A stretch of 64,000 nucleotides of DNA, taken from a virus. Lineage: Duplodnaviria > Caudoviricetes. The stretch is from positions 32,001-96,000 of IMG/VR virus record IMGVR_UViG_3300029288_000065. One strand, written 5' to 3'. The notes under the pieces were generated by a model. The model was given only the letters and a program-made list of their open reading frames with translations, was not told the origin of the DNA and searched no databases. Shown piece by piece: positions 22,433-52,767 of this stretch; the first letter of the stretch is position 1; each line of letters opens with the position of its first letter. Made by a program: the position numbers and the translations under genes.

Positions 22433-22736
22433 TCTAGAATTCTTTGAACATGCTAAGATTTTAAAGAGTGATCCTCATATTTTACTTTCGTCTTGTCCGC
22501 AGTTTTTGATTAACCATCCGTCTTTTAAGGCTATTGTTTCTGATGGTAGACGTGTTATTCCTTTGATTTTGCGTGATTTTGAAGTTGACGAGATGTTTTC
22601 TTGGGATATTGTTCTTGAACATATTGTTGGTTTTTGTCCTTGTCCGGTTGAGCATCGTGGTGTTGTTGATAAGATTCGACAGGATTGGTTGGAGTGGGGT
22701 AGGAAGCGTGGTTTCCTTACGGAGAATATGGGATGA
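22425..22736 (+). CDS. Hypothetical protein (HPxFxxI...PLILR...WLEWG type)
   Basis: Coupled to neighbours; motif pattern resembles small bacterial proteins of unknown function. Confidence 0.55.
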   Translation: MTDLEFFEHAKILKSDPHILLSSCPQFLINHPSFKAIVSDGRRVIPLILRDFEVDEMFSWDIVLEHIVGFCPCPVEHRGVVDKIRQDWLEWGRKRGFLTENMG

Positions 22737-23098
22737 CAACAACTCCGTCAAAGAATAATGATGCTTTTGAGGTATCATTATCTTTTAGGCAAGAGATTAT
22801 TTGTTCATTTTCTATTAGGATTAATAATCATTCTATTCATTGCGATCTATGTTTAAAAGATGATTATGATTATAACAATCCAGATAATGATCCGATTTTT
22901 TTGATTCAGTCTTGGTATGGACATTGGGAGGTAAATTTATCTAGTAAGGAGGTTATTTTTGTTGATTGGGGTTTTCATCCTAAATTAATTATTAGGAATT
23001 TGAGAATAGAAGAAAAGAGACGTTTGATTAGAAAGTGTAAGAAGTTCTTACGGAGAAATAAGAAGTGGCATTGGGTCATGGGGGTGGATTATGTTTGA
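22733..23098 (+). CDS. Hypothetical protein, DP-motif family; paralog of the C-terminal domain of 24870..25256
   Basis: YDYNNPDND...WYGHWEVNLS...EEKRRLIRKCKKFLRR. Confidence 0.6.
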   Translation: MTTTPSKNNDAFEVSLSFRQEIICSFSIRINNHSIHCDLCLKDDYDYNNPDNDPIFLIQSWYGHWEVNLSSKEVIFVDWGFHPKLIIRNLRIEEKRRLIRKCKKFLRRNKKWHWVMGVDYV

Positions 23099-23342
23099 TT
23101 ATCTTTCTAATCTTTTGGCTAGTGTACCTTTTTTGTCTTAGGAGGTTTTGTGCATCTTTTATTTTGGTGTCTTGCTGGCTTTTTGGTAATGTTACAGAAG
23201 AGGGATTTATATTTCTGGATTTATTGTATTTCTTTTTGTGGTACTTTTTTGTTGGATACTTGGTTTCGAAGCGGTGATTTTTGGTTTTCTTTGGTTTTAT
23301 GCTTGTCTCTGATTCTTACTTTTGGTTTTTGGAGATATGTGG

Positions 23343-23663
23343 ATGATTTCTGATACGTTTAAAGTTTGTGAGGAATTATGTAGTATTGGTAATTCTGCTG
23401 GTTTAAAATGTCATATTAGGAAGAATTATGTTTTTTGTCTAAAATATGATGTTGTTGTGTATCCAAGGTTGCATAGTGAGGAGTTGTTGTTTAAATATAA
23501 GAGTGATATTATTTTGGAAGTCGATGATGGTGTTATACGTTGTACTAAGTGTAGGTATTCAAATAATAAGGAAATCTCTTGGGATTTGTGTGATCCTGGT
23601 GTTTTTGAGTCGATTCTTTGTTGGTTTAAGAGTCAGAGAGTTCAGCCAGAGAAGATTTTATGA
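23343..23663 (+). CDS. Hypothetical protein, DP-motif family
   Basis: C-terminal WDLCDPGVFESI; GGAG SD. Confidence 0.55.
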   Translation: MISDTFKVCEELCSIGNSAGLKCHIRKNYVFCLKYDVVVYPRLHSEELLFKYKSDIILEVDDGVIRCTKCRYSNNKEISWDLCDPGVFESILCWFKSQRVQPEKIL

Positions 23664-24055
23664 CCGAGTTTGATATTGTTGAATTTGCTGTTGGGATGAT
23701 TTGGAAGAAGTGTTGGTTTGTTCGTCTAAAGCGTATTCCTATTTCGCCTTTTGGTTTTAAGATTTTTTGTGATGGGAATGGGCCTGTTGTTTATATTACT
23801 TCTGTTCCGCCTGGGTTTGCTCTCAAATATTTTCCTGATCAAACCATGGGTTGTGTTGGGGTTTCAGTTAGGGATGTTGGTTGGTGGTTTGATGTTGTTG
23901 ATATTACTTTGTTTGAGGGTTATATTGCTGATCCGGAGTTTGATTTGGATAAAATTGTTAGGAATATTCGTAATAGATACCTTTGTTGGGTGTTGTGGAA
24001 GTGGTCTTCGGTAGTGTTGTTTTGTTGGGTTTTGTTGGACTTCTGTGGAAAATGA
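23660..24055 (+). CDS. Hypothetical protein, DP-motif family, C-terminal hydrophobic segment
   Basis: GYIADPEFDLDKIVRNI; ATGA coupling. Confidence 0.55.
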   Translation: MTEFDIVEFAVGMIWKKCWFVRLKRIPISPFGFKIFCDGNGPVVYITSVPPGFALKYFPDQTMGCVGVSVRDVGWWFDVVDITLFEGYIADPEFDLDKIVRNIRNRYLCWVLWKWSSVVLFCWVLLDFCGK

Positions 24056-24086
24056 CTTTGGTATTTTAGCTTTAAAGGAGAAACGC

Positions 24087-24389
24087 ATGACGGATGCGAT
24101 TCGTAGTCTGCAGAACAGGATTAAGATACGTTTGAGGAATAAAAAGATACGGACACCGAAGAAGATTATTATTGGTAATCATGAAATTATAATTGAAGAT
24201 TGTTTCTGGGAAAGTTATGATACTGTTGTTGTTATTTTGAATTGTAATATTATCCATAGAGTACATCAGCATGGGGTACGAGTATCAATTCGTGGGTTAA
24301 AACCAGTTAATATGTATTATTATGAACCAGGGAGGAAGAGTGATTATTTACCTGTAAATGATGAAATTATTAAAGTATTGTTCATTTGA
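24087..24389 (+). CDS. Hypothetical protein
   Basis: GTATTT motif and AAGGAG SD upstream of ATG 24087. Confidence 0.55.
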   Translation: MTDAIRSLQNRIKIRLRNKKIRTPKKIIIGNHEIIIEDCFWESYDTVVVILNCNIIHRVHQHGVRVSIRGLKPVNMYYYEPGRKSDYLPVNDEIIKVLFI

Positions 24390-24456
24390 CGCTTAATGAA
24401 CTTAATAATATTCTTCCTATATATCCATTGGTTCACAGTCATTTTAGGAAGAAATA

Positions 24457-24873
24457 ATGACTATTGAAGAATTTAATATCAAAGCAGGTTGCCAAGTGCC
24501 ATGGACGAGAGGTACTTGGAATGGTCAATTTTTGTCTTTGGATGATACTCCAGCAGGTGATTTCAAACCGGAAGAAATTTGGCGAGTATTGGCAGTCAAT
24601 AATTCAGGTGGTGATTGGGATGGTTTCGGTGCAGCAGTCATACAATTGAAGGATGGAAGGTGGGTGGCGTGGGAATCAAGTTGGGGTCCAACGGGAAGTG
24701 GTTTTAGCGAAGATGCTTATGGTGGTGATGCGAATGTTTATTTCTCATCGACTATGGAAGGAGCAATAATGCTTGGGTTGACTCCTGTTAGTAGAGATTT
24801 ATTGGGTTTGGACACGGAAAATTGGTCAGATCCAAATGCTAAGTTGCCGGTCTTGGAAGAGATTACACCATGA
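24457..24873 (+). CDS. Hypothetical Trp/Gly-rich protein
   Basis: 138-aa ORF, AGGA SD, ATGA-coupled to the next ORF. Confidence 0.6.
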   Translation: MTIEEFNIKAGCQVPWTRGTWNGQFLSLDDTPAGDFKPEEIWRVLAVNNSGGDWDGFGAAVIQLKDGRWVAWESSWGPTGSGFSEDAYGGDANVYFSSTMEGAIMLGLTPVSRDLLGLDTENWSDPNAKLPVLEEITP

Positions 24874-25256
24874 ATGTTGGTTCGTTTTCGAGATTTGTTT
24901 TCCCTTTAATCAGGAAGTCTTATCCTGCTCTGATTGCTAACCAACTTGTGGGTGTTCAACCAATGACTCCAACAGTTAAAGATTTTGGAATTTTTAAGTT
25001 AAAGATTGATCGTCAGAGGTATAATATTGCTGTTTCTTTGTTGGAAAAGTATGATTATTCTAATCCTAGTAATGATATACTTGTTGAAGCTCATTTTGGT
25101 GCGTGGTTTTGGAAAGTGAATGTTTCTCGTGGATGTGTTCAATGTGTCTCGAAGTTTATAAATGGCCCAAACAAGAAAGTTTTGTCGGTTGCTGAGAGGA
25201 GAGAATTGGTTGCTGGCTGTAGAAAAGCCCTAAGGAAACTTCATGATAAAGATTAG
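24870..25256 (+). CDS. MCP (Gol-region) peptide fused to a DP-motif ORFan domain
   Basis: N-terminal FSRFVFPLIRKSYPALIANQLVGVQPM matches MCP FTRFALPMIRKSYPRLIADNLVGVQPM at 20/27 positions. Confidence 0.75.
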   Translation: MNVGSFSRFVFPLIRKSYPALIANQLVGVQPMTPTVKDFGIFKLKIDRQRYNIAVSLLEKYDYSNPSNDILVEAHFGAWFWKVNVSRGCVQCVSKFINGPNKKVLSVAERRELVAGCRKALRKLHDKD

Positions 25257-25659: not shown

Positions 25660-25680
25660 GTGTGATTAAGGAGAAAGAAA

Positions 25681-26118
25681 ATGGAAGAAAGATCCTGGAC
25701 GATTGCTGGTAGATCCTGGACGATTGCTGGTTGTATGTTTTTCATTCTTGTTTGTGTGGCAATTGCTTGTGGGATGTGGGGGTGCCCACAATACAAGGTG
25801 TATGAGCAGAGGCTTGAGGGAGAGGCTCTTTTGGCACATGCTCAGGCTGCCAAGGAAGTTGCTGTGGCTGAGGCTAAGGCAAAGATGGAGTCTGCGGAAC
25901 TTTTGGCTCAGGCTGAAGTGAAGAGAGCTGAGGGTGTTGCTAAGGCCAATAAGATTATTGGTGATAGTTTGAGGGATAATGAATGCTATTTGAGGTATCT
26001 TTGGATTACTGATGTTTGTGGCTCCAATGTTGATAAGACAGTTGTTTATATTCCTACTGAGTGTAATTTGCCGCTTCTGGAGGCTGGTAGGACGCAGGTA
26101 AAGGCTGAGAAGAAATAA
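25681..26118 (+). CDS. Membrane-anchored SPFH/band-7-like coiled-coil protein
   Basis: N-terminal TM helix, GEALLA..A, AEVKRAEGVAKANKIIGDSL, YLRYLWI, VYIPTE..LPLLEAGR; AAGGAG SD. Confidence 0.65.
   Translation: MEERSWTIAGRSWTIAGCMFFILVCVAIACGMWGCPQYKVYEQRLEGEALLAHAQAAKEVAVAEAKAKMESAELLAQAEVKRAEGVAKANKIIGDSLRDNECYLRYLWITDVCGSNVDKTVVYIPTECNLPLLEAGRTQVKAEKK
25690..25731 (+). repeat. 21-bp perfect in-frame tandem duplication (RSWTIAG x2)
   Basis: AGATCCTGGACGATTGCTGGT twice. Confidence 0.9.
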
Positions 26119-26128
26119 GGAGAAGATC

Positions 26129-26455
26129 ATGGTGACTGGATCTGGAGAATGTCGGAAGCTGATTACGTTTGATCAGTTGTTGGGGGAACAGAAAAATCAA
26201 GAGACTCGTCTTTGTAGCTTTAATCAAAGACTTTTAGCTCTTCGTAGAGAAATTTTCGGAGATCCTGATCCTGATCCTGCTGAGAAGGATTGTGCAAAGG
26301 CTGAGACTTTTGGATATTTGGATAGAGCAAGTTCTAATAATGAAGGAATTAAGATTGTAATGGATATGATTGAAACCCATATTTTGGCTCTTGAGAGAGT
26401 TGTAAATTCTGAAGCCAGAGCAAAGTTTGATGCAGGAAGGCCTTCCAATAGGTAA
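26129..26455 (+). CDS. Hypothetical protein
   Basis: AAGGAG SD; helical. Confidence 0.55.
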   Translation: MVTGSGECRKLITFDQLLGEQKNQETRLCSFNQRLLALRREIFGDPDPDPAEKDCAKAETFGYLDRASSNNEGIKIVMDMIETHILALERVVNSEARAKFDAGRPSNR

Positions 26456-26470
26456 TCTCAAATATATTTT

Positions 26471-26761
26471 ATGGGCCACATGGGTAATATTATATGTGGG
26501 ATCATAGATGTACTTCGGTGTAAGCATCCGGAATTTAGTTATCGTTTCGATGAGCATAATATTCATCTTCTGGTGAATAGGACGAATTTTTGTTTTTATT
26601 TTGAGGGGACCGATATTTTTGTTAGTAGGTTAAAGCCAATTGATAAGCAGACTTGGGAGTTTTGTGGAATACCTTTTAGGGTTCCTTTGGGTGATCCAAA
26701 TTGTTTTGATGAGGTGGTGGGATATATTATAGCACAGTACATGATTGTTAGGAAGAGTTAA
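26471..26761 (+). CDS. Hypothetical protein, DP-motif family
   Basis: C-terminal VPLGDPNCFDEVVGYI. Confidence 0.55.
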   Translation: MGHMGNIICGIIDVLRCKHPEFSYRFDEHNIHLLVNRTNFCFYFEGTDIFVSRLKPIDKQTWEFCGIPFRVPLGDPNCFDEVVGYIIAQYMIVRKS

Positions 26762-26764: not shown

Positions 26765-27067
26765 GTGGTGAATCTGGATCTGAATGATCCGTCTGTAGAT
26801 CCTCTTGAATTGCTTGGTCAATTCAAAAGATGGACAGAGCAAGATCAAGCAGGACTATATAAAAGTGGTTTTACTGATTTTGGTGTTTTCCTTTGGGTTT
26901 ACGAAAATTGGGGGTCAAAGGAAGAATCTATTGCTTTGGTGACAAGTTATGAGAAGATGGACATATTAAAGGAGCAAATTTTTGAGTTACTTGCTACTTG
27001 GATTAATTCTGATCTTTTGATTGTAGGAAAGAAAGAGCAGGTGACCATTTTCATTTTTAAAGGATAA
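26765..27067 (+). CDS. Hypothetical protein, N-terminal DP-motif subfamily
   Basis: NLDLNDPSVDPLELL; C-terminal LLATWINSDLL. Confidence 0.6.
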   Translation: MVNLDLNDPSVDPLELLGQFKRWTEQDQAGLYKSGFTDFGVFLWVYENWGSKEESIALVTSYEKMDILKEQIFELLATWINSDLLIVGKKEQVTIFIFKG

Positions 27068-27070: not shown

Positions 27071-27379
27071 ATGGGTTTCGTTGGTGCTCCTGGTCCTCTT
27101 GGTCCTCCTGGTGGACAATATGTTATGGAGGTTCGTGAATGGATGATAGGTTTGAATGGTTTGTTGGTGGTTGTTCCTTCTCGTGATAATGATATTGCTA
27201 ATCCACAGAGTGAAATTTGTTTGTGGGATTTAAATGGTTTCGTTTATTTTAAGGAAAAGAAGTATAAATATATAGGTTCAGATTCTATAGGATATTTTTT
27301 ATGGGATGTTGATACACTTTATAAATTGCCTTATAAGATACCAGAAGAATTTTTCTCACAGATTCCTGTCCAAATATAA
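27071..27379 (+). CDS. Hypothetical protein, DP-motif family
   Basis: DNDIANPQSE; AAGGA SD. Confidence 0.5.
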   Translation: MGFVGAPGPLGPPGGQYVMEVREWMIGLNGLLVVVPSRDNDIANPQSEICLWDLNGFVYFKEKKYKYIGSDSIGYFLWDVDTLYKLPYKIPEEFFSQIPVQI

Positions 27380-28243: not shown

Positions 28244-28630
28244 CTATGCGAAGAGATCTCCGTCTTCAATATCTATGTTTATATCTCTATCTCTACAGTA
28301 CAAACTATATAATTTGTCTACGATGAATTCAGGATCGAAACTCTTTGGATTTCCATATTCATATTCCCAGACGATGTTATTGTTTATCAGAGTCCCATCT
28401 TCGTCTTTATCTTCATCTTCTATTGAGGGTTTTGTGTCTCCAGAATCATATTCTATGACAAATTTCCCATCGTCGTCATATATATCACATATTTTTCCGA
28501 CTGTTTCACTTTCGACGTTTAACATGTCACTTCCAGGAATATTTAGGTCGGTGTAGAATAATTCGACGCCCCATTTTTCGGAAATTCTTTTTTGTATTGC
28601 TTCTAATATTTCTGGTGCTATTCTGCTCAT
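28244..28630 (-). CDS. Hypothetical acidic protein, DP-motif family
   Basis: WEYEYGNPKSFDPEFIVDKL. Confidence 0.55.
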   Translation of the reverse strand: MSRIAPEILEAIQKRISEKWGVELFYTDLNIPGSDMLNVESETVGKICDIYDDDGKFVIEYDSGDTKPSIEDEDKDEDGTLINNNIVWEYEYGNPKSFDPEFIVDKLYSLYCRDRDINIDIEDGDLFA

Positions 28631-28681: not shown

Positions 28682-29581
28682 ATGCGACGAATCAAAAGAT
28701 TCACCAAGGCTCTGAAACTTGCTGGGAAATCTCTATTATGTTGCAAGAAAACTTCAACAGATCCTGTCATTGTTCCTAGCACTGGAGATACGAAAATGAG
28801 CGACAAGATCCTCCTGGTTGGAATAAATGCCTATCCAAGTTGTCCATTGGCTGGATGTGTGAACGACGTTACAGATATGGCTAATTTTTTGGTGACGAAA
28901 TGTGGTGTTTTGGAAGATAATATCCGTCTCTTGGTAGATGGTCGTGCCACTACTGGAAACATTCTGGATCGGTTGAATTGGTTGACTCAGGCAAGCCCTG
29001 GTGATCGTGTTCTTTTTCATTATTCTGGTCATGGTGCGCAGGTCCCAGCGAGAAATTCTTCCGGTGAGATTGACCAACTTTCTGAGTGTATTTGTCCAGT
29101 TGATTTTGATTGGTCTGAGCAGCGTATGATTATTGACAAGCAATTTGTTGAAATTTTTAAGAAAATTCCACCAGGTGTTAGATTCTCTTGGATTAGTGAT
29201 TCTTGTCATAGTGGGGATTTGGATCGTGGATTGACCAAGGGGAATTCCAAGGTTCTTGGAATTAGAAGATTCCCCATCCCTGCTGATATTGCTTGGAGGC
29301 AGAGGATTGCTAAGAAGAAAGCTTTGCGTGCTATGGTTGGTAATACGCTGGATGTTGGATATATTTCTGGTTGTATGGATAATCAGACATCGGCTGATGC
29401 TGAATTTGGTGGTAAGGCAAATGGTGCATTAACATATTTCTTACTGCGAAATTTGGGAAATATGTTACAATCGCCAATTTCTTCGGTTACAAATAAGGTT
29501 ATTTCTGATTTGCAGTCTTCTGGTTATGAGCAAACTCCTACGTGTTCTGGAGCGAGAAAAGATTTGGCTTTCTTATCCTAG
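28682..29581 (+). CDS. Metacaspase / caspase-family cysteine peptidase (C14)
   Basis: LLVGINAY..L.GCVND, FHYSGHG (catalytic His), ISDSCHSG (catalytic Cys), QTSADA, GALT; second in-frame SD+ATG at 28796. Confidence 0.92.
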   Translation: MRRIKRFTKALKLAGKSLLCCKKTSTDPVIVPSTGDTKMSDKILLVGINAYPSCPLAGCVNDVTDMANFLVTKCGVLEDNIRLLVDGRATTGNILDRLNWLTQASPGDRVLFHYSGHGAQVPARNSSGEIDQLSECICPVDFDWSEQRMIIDKQFVEIFKKIPPGVRFSWISDSCHSGDLDRGLTKGNSKVLGIRRFPIPADIAWRQRIAKKKALRAMVGNTLDVGYISGCMDNQTSADAEFGGKANGALTYFLLRNLGNMLQSPISSVTNKVISDLQSSGYEQTPTCSGARKDLAFLS

Positions 29582-31151: not shown

Positions 31152-31414
31152 ACTTGACTACTGCTGGTTCTGCTTTTTCTAATACTTCCTATATTGTTTA
31201 TAATAGTGGAGGAGGTGGTGGAGGTAGTTATGGTACTTGTTATGTGTGTGGTGACACATATGGTGACACATATGGAGAAGAGAGTGATGTTCATCTTTCT
31301 AATAAGAGATATCAAGAATTACTTGCTGCAGAGATGAAACTAAAGAGAATACTCGCAGAACAGAAGAGGATTGAAGAGCAGACTCTTGTTAGCCGAAGGC
31401 GGATCGAGATTTAA
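31148..31414 (+). CDS. Hypothetical protein
   Basis: ATGA-coupled; Gly tract; 12-bp duplication (GDTY x2) at 31250-31273. Confidence 0.45.
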   Translation: MNLTTAGSAFSNTSYIVYNSGGGGGGSYGTCYVCGDTYGDTYGEESDVHLSNKRYQELLAAEMKLKRILAEQKRIEEQTLVSRRRIEI

Positions 31415-32354
31415 TTTTTTCGTTAAATGCATAATTATATGAATTTTGCATAATCTTCTTTAATTCTTCATTTGTAAATCCAAAACTCTTTTTTGCTAAT
31501 TCATATTCTTTTACCAAATTAGTATTCAATATTATTGGATCGTCAGTGCCAATAGTTATTGGTATTCCGAAATCAAAGAATTTTCTTATTGGATGCTGTT
31601 TGATATTTTTAACGACCCCGGTATAGAGGTTTGATGTCAATGCTATATCTAATGGTATTCCTCTTTCTTTTACTAAGTTCATAATATCTTTGTTGTTTAT
31701 TATTTGGATACCATGAGCAATACGTTGAACTCCGAGATATTCTACTGCCAGGAGTACATTTTCAGCTGGACACGACTCACCAACGTGTGCCTGTATTCCT
31801 TTCCCTGCTTCTTTCCATAATTTGAAGATTGATTTGTAGAACTTGGGAGCAAAGTAAGCTTCATCTCCAACAAGATCTATTGCTGTTACTGCATCCCTTG
31901 CTTTATTGTCTAGAATTACTTTTGCTATTCTTTTCTGCAATTTGTGGGCCGATTCGTACTTCAGGCATAATGATATTCCTACTTGAACATCCCAACGTTG
32001 TCCTTCTTCTTGGAGGATATAATTTATATGTCTAATTATATCCTCTGGAGACCATTCTGTGTCTTTGATGTATCTCCCAATGGATAATTTAAGTTCACAA
32101 TATTTTATTCCTTCTTTTTTGAGATCCCATACTATTTGTCGGATAGTATAATCTATACTCCATGGATCCCATTTGATTTTATCTAGAATATTAAATTTAT
32201 TTAAGAAACCGTGGAATGTTTTTTTCTCATTTCTCTTAAAAAGGAGTTGTTTTTCTATTTCTTGGATTGACAAATCTCCGCCATGATGTTTTATGATGTT
32301 GTGGAGTGTTTTGGCGGATATAGATCCACCACAGTGTCGATGTAGATCAATCAT
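31389..32354 (-). CDS. add: Adenosine/adenine deaminase (amidohydrolase fold)
   Basis: DLHRH metal motif, DLVGDE, AHVGE, RIAHG, LTSN, GTDDP. Confidence 0.88.
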   Translation of the reverse strand: MIDLHRHCGGSISAKTLHNIIKHHGGDLSIQEIEKQLLFKRNEKKTFHGFLNKFNILDKIKWDPWSIDYTIRQIVWDLKKEGIKYCELKLSIGRYIKDTEWSPEDIIRHINYILQEEGQRWDVQVGISLCLKYESAHKLQKRIAKVILDNKARDAVTAIDLVGDEAYFAPKFYKSIFKLWKEAGKGIQAHVGESCPAENVLLAVEYLGVQRIAHGIQIINNKDIMNLVKERGIPLDIALTSNLYTGVVKNIKQHPIRKFFDFGIPITIGTDDPIILNTNLVKEYELAKKSFGFTNEELKKIMQNSYNYAFNEKIKSRSAFG

Positions 32355-34326: not shown

Positions 34327-34965
34327 ATGATTACGCAAAACATTGATAGTACTGGAAAGTCATATGAGTATGAAAGCCATGGAAATTTATACGTACGACG
34401 TGAGCCAGATCAGTCATTTATTCCACGTTTCGCCAAACCGGGAGATGTTGGTTTGGATCTCCCAGTTAAGATAAATGTTGATTTAATCAAATTCGATACG
34501 GAATCTGGGTCTGTAAAACCTGACAAGTTAAGATCTGTCATGTTATATCCGGAGTTGAAACAATATATTTATCCAAATGGTATAAACAATGATGGTTTTC
34601 CCTGTCTTGATATTCCTGCTTTTGGGTGGGCCGAGATACCTTCTGCTTTGTCCGTGAAGCTTCCAGATGATGCTTGGGGTTTGATAAAGACTAGATCTTG
34701 TACTGCTTGGAAGCAACACTTAATGGTTAGCTGTTCGACGATAGATCCTGGATACATAGGCTTATTGGGTACTCTGGTGTATAATCCAAATCACACACCT
34801 GTTAGAGTGTATGAATATAATCCAGAAACTGGGAAGGGTGATCGTCTTTCTCAGCTTATTTTGATTCCGATTTATCCTTTACATAAAATTGTTTTGGTTG
34901 ATTACCTTCCAAAGACTGATCGTGGGACCACTGGGTTTGGTAGTTCAGGTTGTAGTCACGAGTGA
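34327..34965 (+). CDS. dut: Trimeric dUTPase with an insertion after motif I
   Basis: GDVGLDL, KTRS, TIDPGYIG, GDRLSQL, RGTTGFGSSG. Confidence 0.88.
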   Translation: MITQNIDSTGKSYEYESHGNLYVRREPDQSFIPRFAKPGDVGLDLPVKINVDLIKFDTESGSVKPDKLRSVMLYPELKQYIYPNGINNDGFPCLDIPAFGWAEIPSALSVKLPDDAWGLIKTRSCTAWKQHLMVSCSTIDPGYIGLLGTLVYNPNHTPVRVYEYNPETGKGDRLSQLILIPIYPLHKIVLVDYLPKTDRGTTGFGSSGCSHE

Positions 34966-35476: not shown

Positions 35477-36079
35477 ATGTGGTACATCTTGAAAGGCAGG
35501 AAATACTTTAAATCTACTGATCTTCGCAAGTGTGATGATCACTTGAAAGATAGACATTCCAGAAGAATAGCGTCTGACTTTATCCCGGATGAAAAACGTA
35601 AAGAGATGACAATTTCGACTGTGTTTCTGAGTTTGGATCATAATATGGGTGGTAGTGGTGGTGGTCCTGTATTGTTTGAAACAATGTGTTTTGGTGGGAA
35701 AATAGATGAGAATACGAATAGATATTCGTCATGGGATGATGCTTTCTTGGGTCATATTAGGATGACTGAACAGGCATTGTTTGAATATTTGAAAATTGAT
35801 GGACAATTTAAGCCAATGGATTTGAAAGCTTTGGTTTACACAGGGAAAATTAAATTTTTTGATGAGACTGACGATACAATCACTGATTGCAGACTTATTG
35901 TTGATGATGGGATTCATCAGCCTTCTACTACTTTTGGTGTGTTTAATAATATTTTCTATAAGAGGATGTTGTGGTCTGAAAAGGAAAAATCTTATAAGAT
36001 TTTCTTTTGGGAAATTGGAGATCCAAAGTGCGATATCTTAAAAGAAGTAAGTCCTTATTCAATGTACTTTAAAAAGTAG
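35477..36079 (+). CDS. Hypothetical protein (STVFLSLDH...PVLFETMCFGG domain) with C-terminal DP motif
   Basis: ISTVFLSLDHN, RYSSWDDAFLGH; FWEIGDPKCDIL. Confidence 0.6.
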   Translation: MWYILKGRKYFKSTDLRKCDDHLKDRHSRRIASDFIPDEKRKEMTISTVFLSLDHNMGGSGGGPVLFETMCFGGKIDENTNRYSSWDDAFLGHIRMTEQALFEYLKIDGQFKPMDLKALVYTGKIKFFDETDDTITDCRLIVDDGIHQPSTTFGVFNNIFYKRMLWSEKEKSYKIFFWEIGDPKCDILKEVSPYSMYFKK

Positions 36080-36196: not shown

Positions 36197-38947
36197 ATGA
36201 TTTTCCAACTTCCAAAAATTGAAGACCTTGTTGATAAGCAATTCTTCCAGGTCCCAGTAGCAGACGGAATTCTGGCAGGATACCAAGTCGACCAAGAAAC
36301 TAAAACATTCTATGCCAAAGAAAGCCAAATAATTATCCCATCAATGCATGGGCTAACACACGTCGCTGAAGACCCAGTACCAGACGCAACACCAGATCTA
36401 CATGGCCTAATGTCAGGAGATGACAAAGCCAAATTGGACGCACTGGTCCAGATGAGATTGGGAATTCTTGGTTACCAAGGAGCGGGCTTCCCAGACGATG
36501 GCGGCTTCCTCACAGGCGACATAATTCTAGCAGCAGGAAGTGAATTTATTAGTATAGAAAGAGTAGGGAACACAGTAAGATTCACAGTTGACTCCCCAAT
36601 CCCATTAAATTGTGGATGCGAGAGCTGCGCACAGATTTTCTGGATACAAGACGAAAGTGAAGCAAGAGCGATCAGACCACCATCTTGCAATGGTGTAATG
36701 CCAAACGTATCAGCTTACGGCGAACTTAAAATATACTTATTACCAGAATCTACTATCGTAGACCCACAAGACCCGTTAACGACGTTAAACACAAAGGGAA
36801 ATTACCCAACACTAATCTTCAAGAGATATGATAATGGTTTAACACCATTCGAAGCGTCATTTGAAATGGTCCTCAAGAGAAACTCAAATTTGACAAGTAA
36901 TGTAGGTTGGGCATTTACACCTGGCCCAACCAATATAGCACAATTAGTATGGTATATGGGAAGTGATAAAAATGGTGCACAAATAAAATTCGAACTTTGG
37001 CCTGATTCAGAACCTGGGCTAATGGGCCAACTTCTTTACCGTGGAAATCTGATCACGAAGATGCCAGCAGTCATCACTGGTTACACGACATCAATGTTGA
37101 CCACAAACCAATATAATGTTAAGAAATGGGATCTAAAAAATGAAGTCCCAGTTGGAAGTGCTTTTGTGGCTAAGAACGTCTGGAAATACCTAAATCCTGA
37201 AAACACAACAACAAACACAACGAACCCAAAGACTCTTGTCTTGGATAATACCGTTGGTATACTCCCAGTTGGAACTTTGGTAGATCTCTACCAATTTGAA
37301 ACAGCCAGAACTGGTCTTTCCAGAACAGTTGTTTCTTACTTCATAAAAGAACCAGCTGCAAATTCTACTAATCTTTGGTCTTTGGCTGGTGCAGTCAGAT
37401 TTGGTGACCGGTTTACCGCCCGTGAAGAAATCAACAACCCATCCACGGGTTCAGATTTGGCAGCAAGTGAATTGAACGTATCAGACGTTAGATTATTTGA
37501 ACGAGGAGAATGGGGTCTTCTTGGTTTTGAAGATAGATTAATTCTCTCAGATGACGGTGGAATAGCTGCGTCCACTGATGGAGTACAGAGGAGAGAACCT
37601 TCCGGTGACCCGATCAACAATGATATAGTTGCTGACATTGATCCTACTATCCCTGGCTTAAAGGTTCTAAAACAGACTCCAGATAGAAGCTCGGTTGACG
37701 TGGATGGTGACGGTGTTGTGACCGACAAAGATTTGGCAGCATTTGCTTGTGCTTATGGTTCCAAAATTGGTGATGCCAATTATAATGTAAAGGCTGATTT
37801 GAATGGTGATGGTCGAGTAGATGTCCGCGATTTGGCAATTCTTGGTCAATTTTTTGATCTTGGTGTCGAGAGGGTTACTGACAGACCACTATTCCTGTGG
37901 AATAGAAGTAGCCATAAGAACGTACTGACTCACCTTCAACTTGGTATGCCAGCAGCTGATGCAAGATTATTCCCACCGTACGATCTTCTTTTATCTGCTC
38001 CAGTTGATAGCTTTGATGATACCTACGTTAGAGTAATCCAACGTGGTGTATTCCAAACTGGACCTTTTGCTGGCGCTCCTTATATTGTTGTAAAAGGTAT
38101 TGAATGGCGAGAACTCCCTCAACAAGGTATTCTAAGAATTTTGACCGGTGCATTCAGAAATATTATATGGAGATATTATTTCAAAGCAGCATTCTCAAGT
38201 GACGACGATGATGGTGTAACTCTTATTGGCCGTGATTATGTCTTCCCATTTGATGAAGATTTCCCAATCCTTAATTTCCGTGGAACATCTTGTACCGTTC
38301 CGGGGGCAACTGATCTACCTGCTACTGATTATAATGTTCCGACAAGTTCCATTTGTTGTGAACTCCTTCATCAAGATTATACAGCTCCGTGTATGAGATT
38401 CCAATTTGAGTCTGATTGGAATACTGGTTCAGAAGCCGTCCAATTACAAATTATTTGTGGCATGCTTGATATGGGTGTTGCTTATACACTCTACGATCCA
38501 GTGACCCATCTTGATGATCTTGTTCGTGGTTTCTCTCCAGGGTATACAGTCAGTAAGATTATGGTTCAGCAAGGTTTCATCACTGACGGGATTGGAGCTG
38601 GTGTTGTTTCAAATCCGACCACGTTTAAGGTTTATTGGGGCGGCGAATTGGCTGTTCCTGTTAGTGGTCAGACTGAGAAATGGAACGAAGTTGAAGTAAT
38701 GTATAAAGATAATCAGGCATGGTTGTGGTGGAATGGTATTTTGGTTTCGCCTGATCCTACTCTTTGTTCCAAGCTTCCTACCCCTGTTGCTGTTAATACG
38801 CCTTATTTCCCGTTACATCCTCAGGTTTCGACTGGGAAAGTTGCTCTTAGAATGTTCCCTGGGGCAATTGTTCGATCCTTTGATGTCAAGGATCAATTGA
38901 CGTCGTTTAATGAATATTCTTATAGTCAGCAGGGGATCACTTCTTGA
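36197..38947 (+). CDS. Large tail/baseplate-associated protein with dockerin-like EF-hand pair
   Basis: ATPDLHGLMSGDDKAKLD tail-fibre repeat; DVDGDGVVTDKDL...ADLNGDGRVDVRDL; AAGGAG SD. Confidence 0.65.
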   Translation: MIFQLPKIEDLVDKQFFQVPVADGILAGYQVDQETKTFYAKESQIIIPSMHGLTHVAEDPVPDATPDLHGLMSGDDKAKLDALVQMRLGILGYQGAGFPDDGGFLTGDIILAAGSEFISIERVGNTVRFTVDSPIPLNCGCESCAQIFWIQDESEARAIRPPSCNGVMPNVSAYGELKIYLLPESTIVDPQDPLTTLNTKGNYPTLIFKRYDNGLTPFEASFEMVLKRNSNLTSNVGWAFTPGPTNIAQLVWYMGSDKNGAQIKFELWPDSEPGLMGQLLYRGNLITKMPAVITGYTTSMLTTNQYNVKKWDLKNEVPVGSAFVAKNVWKYLNPENTTTNTTNPKTLVLDNTVGILPVGTLVDLYQFETARTGLSRTVVSYFIKEPAANSTNLWSLAGAVRFGDRFTAREEINNPSTGSDLAASELNVSDVRLFERGEWGLLGFEDRLILSDDGGIAASTDGVQRREPSGDPINNDIVADIDPTIPGLKVLKQTPDRSSVDVDGDGVVTDKDLAAFACAYGSKIGDANYNVKADLNGDGRVDVRDLAILGQFFDLGVERVTDRPLFLWNRSSHKNVLTHLQLGMPAADARLFPPYDLLLSAPVDSFDDTYVRVIQRGVFQTGPFAGAPYIVVKGIEWRELPQQGILRILTGAFRNIIWRYYFKAAFSSDDDDGVTLIGRDYVFPFDEDFPILNFRGTSCTVPGATDLPATDYNVPTSSICCELLHQDYTAPCMRFQFESDWNTGSEAVQLQIICGMLDMGVAYTLYDPVTHLDDLVRGFSPGYTVSKIMVQQGFITDGIGAGVVSNPTTFKVYWGGELAVPVSGQTEKWNEVEVMYKDNQAWLWWNGILVSPDPTLCSKLPTPVAVNTPYFPLHPQVSTGKVALRMFPGAIVRSFDVKDQLTSFNEYSYSQQGITS

Positions 38948-47618: not shown

Positions 47619-48707
47619 ATGAGCCAGAAGATTGAAATCCCAGAAACCGTCAAGGTTTGCATGCCTGGTGATGATCTGAAAAGGCCAAAACGAGAGGCAT
47701 GTCAGGGTGTAATTGAATTTATTGTTAAGGATAAAAATGGCCAAATAGTCCAACGTTGGGAAGAACCAAATATTGTTAAGATTTTCGCAAAAGAAATGCT
47801 CTCACACAGATTACCTTCGTCACAATACTGGGACCCACTGGCTAGTAGCGGTGCAGGTGCCTGGGTAAACACAGACCTTGACCCTGATGAAGAATTCTCA
47901 GCAAGATATATTCTCCTTGGTGCGTCATTTGACGCCAATGGAATACCAATTGATAATGACCCAAGGTATTATACTACTGACCCTGTTACAAATACTATTG
48001 TACCGATTCGTTTGGAACCAGGCGCAGATTATGATGGGGAATTAATCAATTCAATTCCTCTTACAGACCCAAATCGTCCTTTAAAAAAGATCGAAGCCAT
48101 TGATTTCCAACCAACTTATCAACCTGCCGGTCAACCTTTACTCCAGAGCGACGTTAGAGCTATTAACAATATTGTGTTACTCCAGACTACGATAAAGCTT
48201 GATGAATATAATGGTTTTGGTCTAACTGATAGTGATTTCTTTGTTCTAACTGAGGTTGCTTTGGCTGGTGGTCGTAAGATTGATAGTGTTGATAATTGTG
48301 AATGCAAACCACGTGAATTATTCTTGGAAGGTCCAACAGGTTCTGCTGGGGTTGCTTTGCATTGTGTTGCCAATGGTAGTGACGTTATTTCGATTGACCC
48401 GAGTGAAACAGAGGTTGATCTTATTAAGCAGGGTGATCAGATAAAGATTGTTGGTCCTGATGATTCTCAAGGTGAGGAGACTTTATCACAGGTGTCTCCT
48501 TTTTATTTGGTCATGAGTAAGGCTGTTGGTGGCCGAGACATTACTCTTGATCGTACTCCGGTTTTTTCTACTAATACTCCAATTGTTGGAGGTATTGGTG
48601 TTTTCCGTGATACATTGAGGATTTTCTCTCATCGAATTTTGAAGACTCCGGTGAAGAAGAGTGCTGATTTTGAGATTACGATCATTTGGCGAATTATTTT
48701 TAATTAG
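47619..48707 (+). CDS. Tail-collar / fibre-attachment type baseplate protein
   Basis: NIVK, LTEVAL and C-terminal IFSHRILKTPVKKSADFEITIIWRIIF; AAGGAG SD. Confidence 0.6.
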   Translation: MSQKIEIPETVKVCMPGDDLKRPKREACQGVIEFIVKDKNGQIVQRWEEPNIVKIFAKEMLSHRLPSSQYWDPLASSGAGAWVNTDLDPDEEFSARYILLGASFDANGIPIDNDPRYYTTDPVTNTIVPIRLEPGADYDGELINSIPLTDPNRPLKKIEAIDFQPTYQPAGQPLLQSDVRAINNIVLLQTTIKLDEYNGFGLTDSDFFVLTEVALAGGRKIDSVDNCECKPRELFLEGPTGSAGVALHCVANGSDVISIDPSETEVDLIKQGDQIKIVGPDDSQGEETLSQVSPFYLVMSKAVGGRDITLDRTPVFSTNTPIVGGIGVFRDTLRIFSHRILKTPVKKSADFEITIIWRIIFN

Positions 48708-49120
48708 TCTTGTTTTTGTCTGTCTCGGATTATTGTTTTGAAGATCTCTAATTCTCGTTTTGATAGTTGGTATTGTATACTTGCACTTTCATAACTTAAA
48801 ACCATTGATATTGTCGCGTCACCAACCATCTCTTGGAAAGAGATATGTATATCAGTTGTATACCAATCCAAGTTTGTGAAAATGTGTAATATATTGTATA
48901 ATCCATGGGCGCGGATTTCCATTTTGAATACGTGACCTATGCGGTTATGTGGATTGGCGAATTCTTGGATGTCTTGTGTGTATACATCTTCTGGGATTTC
49001 ACACCACAAGCCATAATAATGTATATCAGTAGGTATAAATATTGTGTATGTTTCATGATATTTATGGTTGTACTTCATAATAAAATCTCGCTGCAAGTCG
49101 AAATTCAGGAATCTTTTCAT
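48704..49120 (-). CDS. Hypothetical protein (weak DP motif)
   Basis: QEFANPHN. Confidence 0.45.
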   Translation of the reverse strand: MKRFLNFDLQRDFIMKYNHKYHETYTIFIPTDIHYYGLWCEIPEDVYTQDIQEFANPHNRIGHVFKMEIRAHGLYNILHIFTNLDWYTTDIHISFQEMVGDATISMVLSYESASIQYQLSKRELEIFKTIIRDRQKQD

Positions 49121-49189
49121 ACGTTTTCTTATCGTGTTTGCATAATTCCTAAATAATGGTTGTTTGATATAATTTCTCGGAGGTGGTTT

Positions 49190-49603
49190 ATGCTTTCAGA
49201 AGACCAGAAGAATATCGTCCGTACAATCATGAATGCTGCTGATCCTCAGAATGTTCTTGATTGGGGATATACAAACGAGACTTCAAGTCATGATTCTTAT
49301 TATATTTCATATAACGAGAAACATGTTGGGTTTTTCCGTTTTGTAGATCCCATCACATTATATGTGAAGGCTGGCAGACATTTTCGAACGTTTGATATTG
49401 CGAATCCAGCAGAGTTTGATGTGAATAATGTTGCGCTCTGGATTATTAGAAGTGTATTATATGATTTTGCCATTAATATTAATGATAATATTACCGATGC
49501 TCCACTTGATTGGAAAATTAAACTAATAGAAAGTTTAAAGAGTGTTCTTATTTGGGCAATGATTATTGGTGGGATTTTGATTGGGATTTCTCTCTTTTTG
49601 TAA
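49190..49603 (+). CDS. Hypothetical membrane protein, DP-motif family
   Basis: FDIANPAEFDVNNV; C-terminal TM helix; GGAGG SD. Confidence 0.55.
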   Translation: MLSEDQKNIVRTIMNAADPQNVLDWGYTNETSSHDSYYISYNEKHVGFFRFVDPITLYVKAGRHFRTFDIANPAEFDVNNVALWIIRSVLYDFAININDNITDAPLDWKIKLIESLKSVLIWAMIIGGILIGISLFL

Positions 49604-49612
49604 ATATAATGT

Positions 49613-50212
49613 ATGATTTACCAACTATATGGCGGTGGTGGTTTAGGTGACTCATGGGCGTCTGTCAACTATGTTGGCAAGTGTCATGGCACTCTGTCTG
49701 TAATAACAAAAGATAATGCTGTTAAAACAGATATGTTGAACGATATAATTTCGTTGCTTGGAGTCCAAAAGAATGTAAATCTATCGCAGCAACGTGGTGA
49801 TCATAGTTTAACTAGAATGGTTTGGATGAGTCCATATTTGCCTACTGTTAGGCGTTGGAAGCCTGGACCTTTTGGTAGGATTTGTTATCAGTTTGAGGGA
49901 ATTAGTAATGCACATTTGAAACAACCCCCACAGGCTGATTTTGAGAGGCTTGTTAGTTTCGCTCCTGGTTTTCAGTTTGTCAGACTCGGAAAGCCAGCAA
50001 GTTTGATTGAGTCAGTTGAATTGATGTATAAGAGCGATTTGTTTTTGGGGATTTGTAGTGGCTTTTCTCATATTGCTCATAGTATGGGTATTCCAACTTT
50101 TCTAATTCAATATCAGATGCCAATCGCACCGTGGCATCATGGTAAAAAGTATTCATTATGTAATGGGACGAATGAGGCAATTCATGTTGTCAAGTCTTAT
50201 CTGAAGATTTAA
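49613..50212 (+). CDS. GT9-like (heptosyltransferase-fold) glycosyltransferase, compact
   Basis: N-terminal GGLGD; SDLFLGICSGFSHIAHSMGIPTFLI matches the GT9 FxGxDSGxxHxAxxxGxP motif. Confidence 0.65.
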   Translation: MIYQLYGGGGLGDSWASVNYVGKCHGTLSVITKDNAVKTDMLNDIISLLGVQKNVNLSQQRGDHSLTRMVWMSPYLPTVRRWKPGPFGRICYQFEGISNAHLKQPPQADFERLVSFAPGFQFVRLGKPASLIESVELMYKSDLFLGICSGFSHIAHSMGIPTFLIQYQMPIAPWHHGKKYSLCNGTNEAIHVVKSYLKI

Positions 50213-50504
50213 TATCTTCAACAACCCATTCATTCCAGGAGACTTTGGAAATTAGTCCTGCTTCCCACCATAAATTGGTGTATTGGTCTCGAATTTTCTT
50301 TATCCACCTAATATCAAATGCTTTCTCTTCTTTTACCCAGATAAACGGAATATTTCCTACACTTTTGACGATGATGTACCTCTCAAGTGCTTCGTTTTTG
50401 AAATAAGTAAAAGTGTACTTTTGAAGACGACACCACGAAAGAAAATCTTTAAAGATTTCCAGAGGATCACATTCTGGATTTGCCAAATCAAACTCTATCT
50501 TCAT
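50190..50504 (-). CDS. Hypothetical protein, N-terminal DP-motif subfamily
   Basis: FDLANPECDPLEIF; C-terminal LWWEAGLI. Confidence 0.6.
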   Translation of the reverse strand: MKIEFDLANPECDPLEIFKDFLSWCRLQKYTFTYFKNEALERYIIVKSVGNIPFIWVKEEKAFDIRWIKKIRDQYTNLWWEAGLISKVSWNEWVVEDIKSSDKT

Positions 50505-50814
50505 AATCCTTAAAAGTCCCTGTATATTTATAATTATTCTTTCTCTTACCTATTCGTTTAAAGTGTTTTATTCTCTCACTAAAGTTCACTAAGCACGTAT
50601 CACAAATATAAACTTCCAGGAATTCATAGTCGTCGAAAGGGTCGTATTTTGTGCTCCCGTAGTTTCCGCTTCCTTTAAATATTACGCCTCCATCTAGCAT
50701 TCCCCAATAGAGAAGTCCATTTTTGGATGGTCTAACTTCTTCCTGAAGCATAATCTTCCCGCAACAAATGCAAATACATTTTACTATCTTGGTTGGGGCT
50801 CTCTTTTCAGACAT
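50488..50814 (-). CDS. Hypothetical Zn-binding protein
   Basis: CICCG...GNYGSTKYDP...ICDTC. Confidence 0.6.
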   Translation of the reverse strand: MSEKRAPTKIVKCICICCGKIMLQEEVRPSKNGLLYWGMLDGGVIFKGSGNYGSTKYDPFDDYEFLEVYICDTCLVNFSERIKHFKRIGKRKNNYKYTGTFKDYEDRV

Positions 50815-51436
50815 TTTTCCCTCGTTTTCTATTCATACCAGGTCTATAAGAGAAGAATCTTTCTGTATTCTCCTTACAATATTCTGCCCATTCCTTTGCT
50901 TTGACAATAATATTAACAATTTTATTTATAATAAATTCCGGATCCCATTGTGGGTTTGCTACAGTTTCGTCACTCCAACTAGCAATAGTCATAATATTAT
51001 AGGAACGTTGCCCTATACCATTTGTATTTGTTATATGAGATATATAAATCCCATTCCCATTCTCGTCACTTTCTGTGTCCCACCCGAAACCGTTTTCTTC
51101 TTGAATCTGTCTTTCTGATTTGTTATTGCAAAAGACTTTAAAGGACATTCCGTAGACTTGTACGTAGAGACAAGTTCCATTTCGACCTCCAATTCCTTTC
51201 TGATATGATGGTTTTAATCGTCTTGATATTGTTTGTTTACTTTCAAGGAGACGTACTAATTCAGATGAGTGCCAACTCTTCCTACTATGTGGTGGGACAA
51301 AGCAGGAGTTGACAGTAGGTACAACAACAGGTGGTTCTTTAACTCTGCTCATAGCAAGTCTAATTTGTGACTTTATGCCTTTTTCTTTCAGGCGTTCTTG
51401 AGTCTTGGTTAATATTCCAAGTAGAACTTCTCTCAT
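50807..51436 (-). CDS. Hypothetical protein, DP-motif family
   Basis: ETVANPQWDPEFIINKIV. Confidence 0.55.
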   Translation of the reverse strand: MREVLLGILTKTQERLKEKGIKSQIRLAMSRVKEPPVVVPTVNSCFVPPHSRKSWHSSELVRLLESKQTISRRLKPSYQKGIGGRNGTCLYVQVYGMSFKVFCNNKSERQIQEENGFGWDTESDENGNGIYISHITNTNGIGQRSYNIMTIASWSDETVANPQWDPEFIINKIVNIIVKAKEWAEYCKENTERFFSYRPGMNRKRGKNV

Positions 51437-51855
51437 TGTTTTACCCCTATCTTGAAGATCTTATCTATGTGAGCTACTATCTTTTCTGCGATCTTATCAG
51501 GATCAAAGTGTGGGTCAGCATATTCCCACTTTTCTTCAGTATGCGTAGGACCAAAGAAACATACTAACGTGAATCCTTTTTCGTCGAAATAGAACAGAGA
51601 AGTTAAGAAATCAAACACGAAAACACCGCAAGTTTCTGGCCAACAATATTTTGTTTGAACCATGCGTTTTCCAGGCAATACTTTTGTAATTCTTTGATAT
51701 ACTGCTTTTCCACTTTGATCTTCTGGTTCATTGTCGAGATTTAGTCGTTTTACTACTGCCAGACATTTCGTATAAAGAATTGCACGTATGGCAGTTCTAA
51801 AATTCTCAATGAGTACATCTTCCTGCGGGTTGTCGGCTTCTTTATTATAATACAT
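51433..51855 (-). CDS. Hypothetical protein, DP-motif family
   Basis: WEYADPHFDPDKIAEKIV. Confidence 0.6.
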   Translation of the reverse strand: MYYNKEADNPQEDVLIENFRTAIRAILYTKCLAVVKRLNLDNEPEDQSGKAVYQRITKVLPGKRMVQTKYCWPETCGVFVFDFLTSLFYFDEKGFTLVCFFGPTHTEEKWEYADPHFDPDKIAEKIVAHIDKIFKIGVKQ

Positions 51856-51881
51856 GTCGTATAGTATCTAGGTCTTATTCA

Positions 51882-52442
51882 CTATAAATCATAGTTTGTC
51901 GTCGGTATCTTTGGCTCCATCTTTTCGCGTTTCAAGTAATCAGATGACAAAATGTATGCAAATCTTTGTTGTTTTGCATTCTTTTTCTCTTTCCCGACTG
52001 GTGATTTTTGAATATATCCATAAAGGATAAGAGCTTCCAATCTGAAATAAACCTCTGGTGGTTCCATTCGTTCTTTTTGTTGAGATCTTACCCAAATATT
52101 GGCTTCTCGTTCTATGAAATCTTGACTTACCACACCATTTTCTTGATATTCATCTCTTATAAGTTTAACGATTGCTCTTTGCGTGCTTGATAATTCTTCG
52201 TCATTCAGATAATTGGTTACTTTATGGATCTTCTCTTCGCCAGCTAATAATCTAAATATCATTGAGAAGACTGCCAAAAGCATACCACATACTATTGCTG
52301 CTATTCTTTGTTCGTCATCTATCTGTAGATCGAATCCTGGAATTCCTTTGACGATTCCAAATATGATTAAAATTGCCGCGAATGAGAAAGTTATTCCTGA
52401 AAAACCAGAAAGTCGTTTGAGGATTGAAACCAAGATCTTCAT
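51882..52442 (-). CDS. Two-TM membrane protein with possible winged-helix C-terminus
   Basis: Two hydrophobic helices, then EVYFRLEALILYGYIQK. Confidence 0.55.
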   Translation of the reverse strand: MKILVSILKRLSGFSGITFSFAAILIIFGIVKGIPGFDLQIDDEQRIAAIVCGMLLAVFSMIFRLLAGEEKIHKVTNYLNDEELSSTQRAIVKLIRDEYQENGVVSQDFIEREANIWVRSQQKERMEPPEVYFRLEALILYGYIQKSPVGKEKKNAKQQRFAYILSSDYLKREKMEPKIPTTNYDL

Positions 52443-52476
52443 ATTGTATCTTTGTCGTTGGACGATAGAAAACCTT

Positions 52477-52767
52477 ATGAAAAATATTGATTTAGCAGAC
52501 CCAAGTATTGATCCTGTGGAATTATTTGAAAGTTATAGATCATGGATGCGAGAGAATTATCATCAAAAATGGATTACCAATACATATTTGATTTATTTGT
52601 GGTTTTCAGAGAAGATGAAATGCGATCTTAAAAGTCCAGTTGAAGAGAATCAATGGCAAAGCGTACGTAGATTGTGCGCAGCTTGGGTAAAGATAGGGTT
52701 GATCCATAGGGAAACAGATTCAAGTAAATACTTGGAGTACTACAGATTCGAAATGGAGTTGCGATGA
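52477..52767 (+). CDS. Hypothetical protein, N-terminal DP-motif subfamily
   Basis: MKNIDLADPSIDPVELF; C-terminal AAWVKIGLI. Confidence 0.6.
   Translation: MKNIDLADPSIDPVELFESYRSWMRENYHQKWITNTYLIYLWFSEKMKCDLKSPVEENQWQSVRRLCAAWVKIGLIHRETDSSKYLEYYRFEMELR

Follow-up and report, generated by a model that had tools for sequence, protein, structure and literature searches.

The window analysed here comprises 64,000 nucleotides (nt) and corresponds to bases 32,001-96,000 of a 233,959-bp virus contig with 39.6% guanine plus cytosine (GC), which belongs to an uncultured T4-like phage. Small accessory genes on both strands of the window encode proteins that share a short motif built around Asp-Pro or Asn-Pro. 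We refer to the motif and the helix that follows it as the module and to the proteins containing it as carriers; all positions are window positions unless they are given as genome positions. The T4-type major capsid protein (MCP) of the phage is encoded at 18087-19649 (Pfam Gp23, 262 bits). Among cultured and deposited phages its closest counterpart, with 40% identity, is found in an uncultured 595-kb phage, and the identity to the MCPs of Rhodothermus RM378 and Xanthomonas XacN1 is ∼31%. The DNA of the contig had no match in the phage collection, and the carriers and their flanks matched cultured phages at neither the DNA nor the protein level. A crude gene call yielded 348 genes; the short gene 52477-52767, whose true start is the ATG at 52477 and not 52213, had been missed and was added by hand, resulting in 349 proteins.

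The consensus of the motif reads hydrophobic (position -4), Asp/Glu (-3), Ile/Leu (-2), small (-1), Asp/Asn (0), Pro (+1), any residue, hydrophobic or Cys (+3), Asp (+4), Pro (+5) and Glu (+6), followed by an amphipathic helix. In the called genes between 22.7 and 52.8 kb we detected the core pattern [DE][ILYFV][ASGNC][DN]P 13 times, compared to a mean of 0.53 and a maximum of 5 in 1000 per-protein shuffles, so the enrichment over shuffled proteins on which the original prediction depended was found. The same pattern did not occur in 462 off-frame open reading frames (ORFs; 22,962 amino acids, aa). Genome-wide it was observed 49 times where 3.4 matches would be expected, and [DN]P.{2,3}DP 24 times with 2.3 expected. 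A hidden Markov model (HMM) of the motif, iterated from the clearest instances, identified 32 proteins with at least 12 bits and one match per protein, and none in the reversed proteome; as a background, 2.1 Mb of other phage loci contained one motif match of at least 10 bits. With looser criteria the genome holds 66 candidates, namely 16 with an N-terminal motif, 27 with the motif at most 50 residues from the C-terminus and 23 internal ones, ∼9 of which are located in large proteins and are probably due to chance. Overall ∼55-65 carriers are encoded genome-wide, roughly one sixth of the genes. The codons at the conserved residues differ synonymously (GAT/GAC, CCA/CCT/CCC/CCG, ATH/CTN), as would be expected from the earlier observation that the DNA is not visibly repeated. 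This free variation indicates selection on the protein rather than the DNA and rules out a DNA-level element.

All 15 motif strings named in the original prediction were located in the translations of their ORFs, though the true gene starts at 23343, 26480, 26768, 49190 and 52477 replace those of longer ORFs. Ten of the 15 instances are strong, having at least 12.6 bits with the motif HMM, Family A membership (52477) or paralogy (24870): these are 22733, 23660, 26765 (the gene starting at 26768), 28244, 35477, 50190, 50807, 51433 and 52477 as well as 24870 through its paralogy with 22733. The genes at 23343 and 49190 combine a regular expression match with a carrier-like architecture, and 26471 (gene start 26480), 27071 and 48704 are weak instances. 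Ten carriers were compared to Pfam and PHROGs, with no match above the cut-off in the former and none in the latter, and a literature search found no paper on the Asp-Pro motif.

The N-terminal carriers form a family of paralogs, Family A, with three members in the window: 26768-27067 (+ strand, 99 aa, motif at nt 26774-26803, motif HMM 24.6 bits, independent E-value (iE) of 4.9e-7 with an HMM of the body only), 50190-50504 (- strand, 104 aa, motif at nt 50463-50492, 31.6 bits) and 52477-52767 (+ strand, 96 aa, motif at nt 52486-52515). The last of these is supported by a body-only iE of 1.4e-11, a motif-only iE of 5.7e-11 and BLASTP links to its paralogs. There are 16 Family A paralogs in the whole genome, each starting with M-x-x-I-D-L-x-D-P-x-x-D-P; five of them are arranged in tandem at genome 217.5-219.0 kb, and the other phage sequence L099 contains another array of five. 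An exhaustive HMMER search of metagenomes returned 162 Family A cluster representatives at E <0.001, nearly all with the motif at the extreme N-terminus. For 141 Family A members we obtained only scattered single chance matches to Pfam and none to PHROGs. Across these 141 sequences the four columns with the highest information content include P10, D13 and D6, which rank with the core Trp. At position +4 we counted D 132 times, N 7 times and K once (one sequence is unlisted), and at position 0 D 95 times, N 43 times and a single K, H and E each. Ser or Thr did not occur at the Asx positions of any of the 141 sequences. Two long proteins matched by the Family A profile, P0122 and P0135, resemble eukaryotic repeat proteins and were excluded as unrelated. 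The 677-aa P0122 has seven copies of ...LDL(S/T)QPNVDPKE(L/E)FQSSY..., which is motif-like with Gln/Met-Pro at the first turn and probably unrelated.

The AlphaFold2 model of the Family A carrier 50190-50504 has a predicted local distance difference test (pLDDT) score of 75.9 overall and 76-91 across the motif. Residues 1-13 are modelled as extended coil, followed by a helix (14-27) that starts from P14 directly after D13, two strands, a second, long helix (65-81) and two further strands that form a beta-hairpin. In the VIA comparison the best matches were nearly all winged-helix domains with Z of 5-6 over 76-87 residues and root-mean-square deviations of 3.1-4.2; the best 10 rows comprised seven DNA-binding domains of winged-helix type (ETS, IRF) and a JetB chain. 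Foldseek returned nothing significant for this model (E of 0.37 or worse). The predicted helix-strand-strand-helix-strand-strand order and the sequence pattern L..W...G[WFL]I...Y.(I/L)T resemble winged-helix domains such as those of ETS, JetB, ESCRT-II and the C-terminal domains of CRP/CooA. In contrast to these, Family A has a 13-residue acidic Asp-Pro lead-in without counterpart, in addition to the missing Pfam and PHROGs matches. Family A is an undescribed family whose model is winged-helix-like.

The C-terminal (C-type) carriers show a single helix after the motif and in some cases a hydrophobic tail. On the + strand they comprise 23343-23663 (106 aa; WDLCDPGVF at nt 23580-23606, 23 aa from the end; regular expression only, C-type layout), 23660-24055 (131 aa with a hydrophobic tail; motif at nt 23918-23944, 20.4 bits), 35477-36079 (200 aa; motif at nt 36008-36034, 19 aa from the end, 12.6 bits) and 49190-49603 (137 aa with an extra hydrophobic tail; motif at nt 49391-49420). 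The last of these matches the regular expression and is the jackhmmer partner of a C-type protein at genome 167894. On the - strand the group includes 28244-28630 (128 aa; motif at nt 28331-28363, 20.0 bits), 50807-51436 (209 aa; motif at nt 50939-50968, 21.6 bits) and 51433-51855 (140 aa; motif at nt 51499-51528, 27.5 bits). A weaker, degenerate member is 26480-26761 (+ strand, 93 aa), where VPLGDPNCFD at nt 26681-26710 falls below both the HMM and the regular expression thresholds. Outside homologs of the C-type carriers were limited to near-identical relatives; for 51433 a word-index search gave no outside homologs, and none of its look-alikes in the ESM Atlas was above chance.

The only C-type carrier that was modelled, 28244-28630 (AlphaFold2, pLDDT 71.5), has the order helix, three strands, a fourth strand formed by the motif, and a helix. 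VWEYE of the motif is a strand according to DSSP, and the final helix starts from P100 directly after D99. Foldseek detected nothing significant for this model, and the best VIA matches were Nqo15, CyaY/frataxin, PsiB and type III secretion system (T3SS) chaperones with Z between 6.0 and 7.4. The modelled carrier looks frataxin-like: like the sandwiches of Nqo15 (2fug_7), CyaY (4hs5), PsiB (3nct) and the T3SS chaperones, its predicted order has an antiparallel sheet preceded and followed by a helix, and the VIA alignments extend over 84-97 residues. It differs from them in having no sequence similarity and no significant Foldseek match, and to our knowledge an Asp-Pro junction is not a feature of frataxins.

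A third group, Family B, carries the motif in the middle of the protein and consists of 22733-23098, 24870-25256 and a gene at genome 158350, which remain paralogs even after masking of the motif. The first (+ strand, 121 aa) contains YDYNNPDNDP at nt 22865-22891 and scores 24.7 bits with the motif HMM; the second (+ strand, 128 aa, motif at nt 25050-25076) reaches only 6.2 bits. In Family B the core appears to precede strand-like sequence. The carrier at 24870 has a capsid-like start: its first 33 residues (24870-24971) copy residues 85-116 of the phage's own MCP with 63% identity, and there is a match to the Gp23 profile (positions 2-42, E 2.9e-7). The copied MCP residues are the segment corresponding to the T4 'Gol' region. 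The same fusion, a capsid-like peptide (FSRFALPLIKKSHPRLIAEDLVKVQPM) on a body with an Asp-Pro core, was observed at 123856-124347 (contig C1) of the distant relative G001, which makes the chimera look like a conserved feature and not a scar.

Three further genes of the window are more doubtful. NDIANPQSE (nt 27188-27214) in the 102-aa protein 27071-27379 (+ strand) is an uncertain mid-protein instance that matches the regular expression with no HMM support. QEFANPHN (nt 48944-48967) in the 138-aa protein 48704-49120 (- strand) was likewise found by the regular expression only, in a gene that was itself only weakly called (score 7.3). The 108-aa protein 26129-26455 (+ strand) was not among the 15 listed proteins; with FGDPDPDPAE and 15.2 bits it is an uncertain candidate for an additional carrier.

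In order to separate the module from the bodies we compared the carriers with and without the motif. The jackhmmer carrier clusters of 25, 8 and 7 proteins collapsed to a few small paralog sets once the motif was masked. A body-only HMM of Family A, built mostly from outside sequences, recovered exactly the 16 N-type proteins at E 0.003 or better, with the next match at E 0.32. The Family A motif-only HMM also matched C-type proteins with iE of 9e-6 to 1.5e-4, and an HMM from a separate G001 family matched carriers of this genome via the motif columns only. We also considered whether the bodies of N-type and C-type carriers might be homologous or related by circular permutation and rejected this, as no C-type protein matched the body-only HMM better than E 1.7. 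The description of the carriers as dissimilar therefore applies between groups, which show no detectable body similarity when the motif is masked; within groups, 26768, 50190 and 52477 are paralogs of one another, as are 22733 and 24870. In one paralog group the apparent non-carriers hold degenerate copies such as MAEPQFFEK, LGDPQFFQK and LSDPKCFEK. The module consists of a short beta-strand, an Asx-Pro turn (x, hydrophobic), an Asp-Pro-Glu helix cap and an amphipathic helix. It is located before the first helix in N-type proteins, at the junction of the last strand and final helix in C-type proteins and mid-protein in the third family, and is probably built into three or four, and at least two, otherwise unrelated small accessory families. 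Of the common strand/turn/helix element for which a test had been suggested, both modelled carriers show an ordered element with a capped helix; a strand was assigned in the C-type model, and residues 1-13 of the N-type model are extended coil.

We then looked for the module in the rest of the genome, as summarized above, and in other phages. Carriers are present in a near-identical 252-kb contig from ENA, and more distant contigs with Family A also encode C-type proteins. L094 has seven N-type and four C-type proteins, L098 two of each and L100, whose core proteins are 70-82% identical to those of this phage, one N-type and two C-type; both types also co-occur in L011. Two adjacent L094 genes (6244-7197 and 7217-8221) encode proteins of 317 and 334 aa with the motif 41 residues from the C-termini (IPNFNDPKFDMDKII and IPEFVDPKFDPDKII), so the module occurs on much larger bodies too. 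No motif match was found in 778 kb of sequence from 80 loci that surround related capsid genes. At E <0.01 none was present in the records of 13 relatives or of the 595-kb phage, while the same search identified 29 in this genome; one of the relatives without the motif was censused in full and the others were covered by narrower searches. Family A is absent in all five complete relatives G001-G005 and the full motif in G002-G005. G001 (395 kb, 51% GC) has 66 of the 349 proteins in common with this phage at ∼39% identity and contains a variant core. We observed [DN]P-x-hydrophobic-[DN]P 21 times in G001 (0.9 expected), 22 times in this genome (0.8 expected) and twice in G002 (1.1 expected). The G001 carriers are found at about 91-124 kb and 4-28 kb and include ∼12 small, Family B-like proteins with a mid-protein core [DN]P-x-[FY]-[DN]P; in addition, four proteins of 237-330 aa have the core at residues 7-27. 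In the genomes searched, the module is restricted to part of this phage clade.

There are several possible explanations for these observations. Tentatively, we favour the one in which the module serves as a recognition handle built into each protein. An acidic turn on a fixed frame of strand and helix would be read by one shared partner, whose existence is presumed and which may be a phage protein, a host protein or a metal-dependent site, and the variable bodies would supply different targets. Of the modular tag envisaged in the original prediction, the discrete unit on dissimilar bodies with different predicted folds has held up; in both models the unit is ordered and embedded in a domain, and in both respects, together with the lack of a motif-free body, it differs from a tag of the short linear motif type. 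Peptides of the form hydrophobic-x-Asn-Pro-x-Tyr/Phe in the disordered tails of eukaryotic receptors dock to phosphotyrosine-binding (PTB) domains by strand addition. The consensus Ile/Leu-x-[DN]-P-x-Phe of the module resembles their strand and Asn/Asp-Pro-x-aromatic turn. Unlike in those peptides, the strand of the module already has a pairing partner in its own domain, at least as far as the C-type model shows, and we know of no PTB-like reader in phages or bacteria.

Several points weigh against a handle. The motif shows hydrophobic periodicity and forms ordered secondary structure, unlike a linear peptide in disorder, and the C-type model places both its strand and its helix inside the fold. 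We never saw a body that lacked the motif. On its hydrophobic face the helix is family-specific, with aromatic residues in N-type proteins and aliphatic ones in C-type proteins, which would fit co-adaptation to each core. That the polar residues are exposed we infer from strand alternation only. With pLDDT values of 72-76, VIA Z below 8 and no significant Foldseek match the models do not prove that the folds are unrelated, and the conservation figures for Family A are derived from sequences that were retrieved with a profile including the motif. Moreover, we found no partner of the module, and both candidates that stood out by gene neighbourhood, a metacaspase and a 145-aa protein, did not pass a co-occurrence test.

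Nearly as plausible is an explanation in which the motif is a structural keystone only: the carriers would belong to a few large and fast-diverging multigene families that grew by duplication, with the motif as their most constrained folding element. The families would share it either through very old common ancestry or because small genes have recombined, and no common partner would be needed. The second Asp-Pro is located exactly at N-cap/N1 of the helix in both models, so the pattern is partly ordinary helix capping. The strand of the motif belongs to the sheet of the C-type model according to DSSP, and the family-specific hydrophobic residues of the helix, the tandem paralog arrays and the retention of the motif by every family member, at times in degenerate form, point in the same direction. 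Among orthologs the motif and helix are also better preserved than the remaining protein. Generic helix caps accept Ser, Thr and Gly and are not conserved across paralogs with less than 20% identity. The module is similar to a helix N-capping box with an Asx-Pro turn in that its second Asp-Pro-Glu occupies N-cap, N1 and N2 and its first Asx-Pro closes the strand. It differs in the absence of Ser and Thr in 141 sequences, in the fixed spacing of two turns and in being missing from the relatives searched except G001. Ordinary capping alone leaves the fixed double turn unexplained, and likewise why positions -3 and +4 are almost always Asp and position 0 is Asp/Asn, without Ser or Thr. It does not account for the persistence of the motif on different bodies, nor for carrier families being present or absent together and missing from most relatives. 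The same polar core across different predicted folds, cap positions that are never Ser or Thr, and carrier families that come and go jointly across phages all argue against a purely structural role, as does the one family with strand-like sequence rather than a helix after the core, a feature read from the sequence only. Because of these features and its built-in position we read the module as a built-in handle first, with the keystone close behind.

A bolder version, which we regard as possible but rather doubtful, is that the module is a universal adaptor plug, by which dozens of accessory proteins with unrelated folds would dock on a single hub. This would amount to a modular host-takeover or counter-defence system without described counterpart in a T4-like jumbo phage lineage. 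An AAA+ ATPase (genome 212483-213730) was rejected as a partner, as it is a core gene present in 5 of 5 complete relatives and hence unspecific. We also considered the 145-aa protein at 25681-26118 (+ strand), which has no Pfam match and among eight relative records occurs in G001 only. Relatives with 43-71% identity are encoded in 72 IMG/VR viral contigs of many sizes, and since none of these 72 loci has carriers nearby we dismissed it as a partner; judging by these homologs it is a widespread phage protein with no assigned function. A homodimer co-fold of the N-type carrier, run without controls, scored 0.00 and says nothing either way.

We consider it improbable that the motif acts through the chemistry of its Asx-Pro residues, either by binding a divalent metal through the carboxylates at -3, 0, +4 and +6 or by self-cleavage or processing of the Asn/Asp-Pro bond, which would free an N-terminal peptide or a C-terminal helix. 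Such a role would be in keeping with an invariant Pro that is strictly preceded by Asp/Asn and with Asp residues that hardly vary at -3 and +4. Asp-Pro and Asn-Pro bonds are classically labile, examples being those of reovirus mu1 and of the self-processing module of FrpC. In C-type carriers, however, cleavage would strip off the helix that the model sets on the sheet. A candidate processing enzyme or partner adjoins the first carrier cluster, a metacaspase-like gene at 28682-29581 (+ strand; Peptidase_C14, E 9.5e-28) that keeps the SGHG, GCVND and DSCHSG motifs and aligns with metacaspases. Acidic pocket residues in GCxND and DSCHSG go with Arg/Lys specificity and not with Asp/Asn. The module also does not correspond to a caspase-type site (Asp-x-x-Asp), as the P1' residue is Pro throughout and about one third of the cases have Asn at P1. 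Homologs of the metacaspase-like protein with 34-52% identity are encoded by G001 and by at least seven other viral contigs; among G001-G005 the gene occurs in G001 only, where it is located within the carrier cluster. Presence in G001 and absence in G002 is a phyletic pattern common to 19 of the 349 genes. We rejected the protease in either role, since no carriers were found within 10 kb of its homologs in seven other phage loci.

Highly improbable, in our view, is a capsid-targeting or addressing leader that would direct the carriers to the prohead or to some other compartment. The major capsid gene is followed immediately, on its own strand, by one of the carrier clusters, and the internal proteins IPI, IPII, IPIII and Alt of T4 are diverse with only a short capsid targeting sequence (CTS) in common (Rao and Black 2010, PMC3012670). 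By analogy the CTS is the nearest functional precedent, being a short conserved peptide that is the sole common part of diverse small accessory or anti-defence proteins in a T4-type phage. It is, however, an N-terminal leader that is cleaved off and occurs on a handful of packaged proteins, whereas the module is N-terminal, C-terminal or internal, embedded in the predicted folds and present in ∼60 proteins. Its position is mostly near the C-terminus or mid-protein, with N-terminal instances in only 16 of 66 candidates genome-wide and 3 of 15 in the window. The position tables show no adjacent Leu/Ile-x-Glu protease site after the motif, and ∼60 different packaged proteins would be unprecedented. 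Chance, or a DNA repeat or regulatory element read as protein, is a negligible explanation even though 3 of the 15 listed instances are individually weak, given the enrichment of 13-fold genome-wide and ∼25-fold in the window, the absence of off-frame matches, the synonymous codon variation and the conservation in phages of 40% and 51% GC.

Between the two carrier clusters lie an adenosine deaminase (31389-32354, - strand, E 3.9e-52), a dUTPase-domain protein (34327-34965, + strand) and a 916-aa protein with a dockerin-type segment (36197-38947, + strand); a GT10 fucosyltransferase-like gene is located at 53215-54276 (- strand). The accessory clusters have a GC content of ∼0.37, which rises to 0.47-0.50 across the capsid-gene region (14000-20000). 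In the genome as a whole the octamer of T4 late promoters, TATAAATA, occurs 28 times with ∼32 expected. As it is not enriched, the late transcription signals of this phage are probably unlike those of T4, and we dropped the octamer as a clue to the timing of the carriers.

Most genes of large phages are ORFans that offer no handle, and the module marks ∼60 of the genes of this phage and defines at least one family that had not been described. Should it prove to be a structural keystone only, its sequence could still be used to recognise accessory families that evolve very fast, and it would provide an example of a supersecondary element that outlasts changes of fold. If the docking handle is true, a single pull-down could place dozens of ORFans in a shared pathway, and the module would represent a new mode in which a phage organises its effector repertoire.

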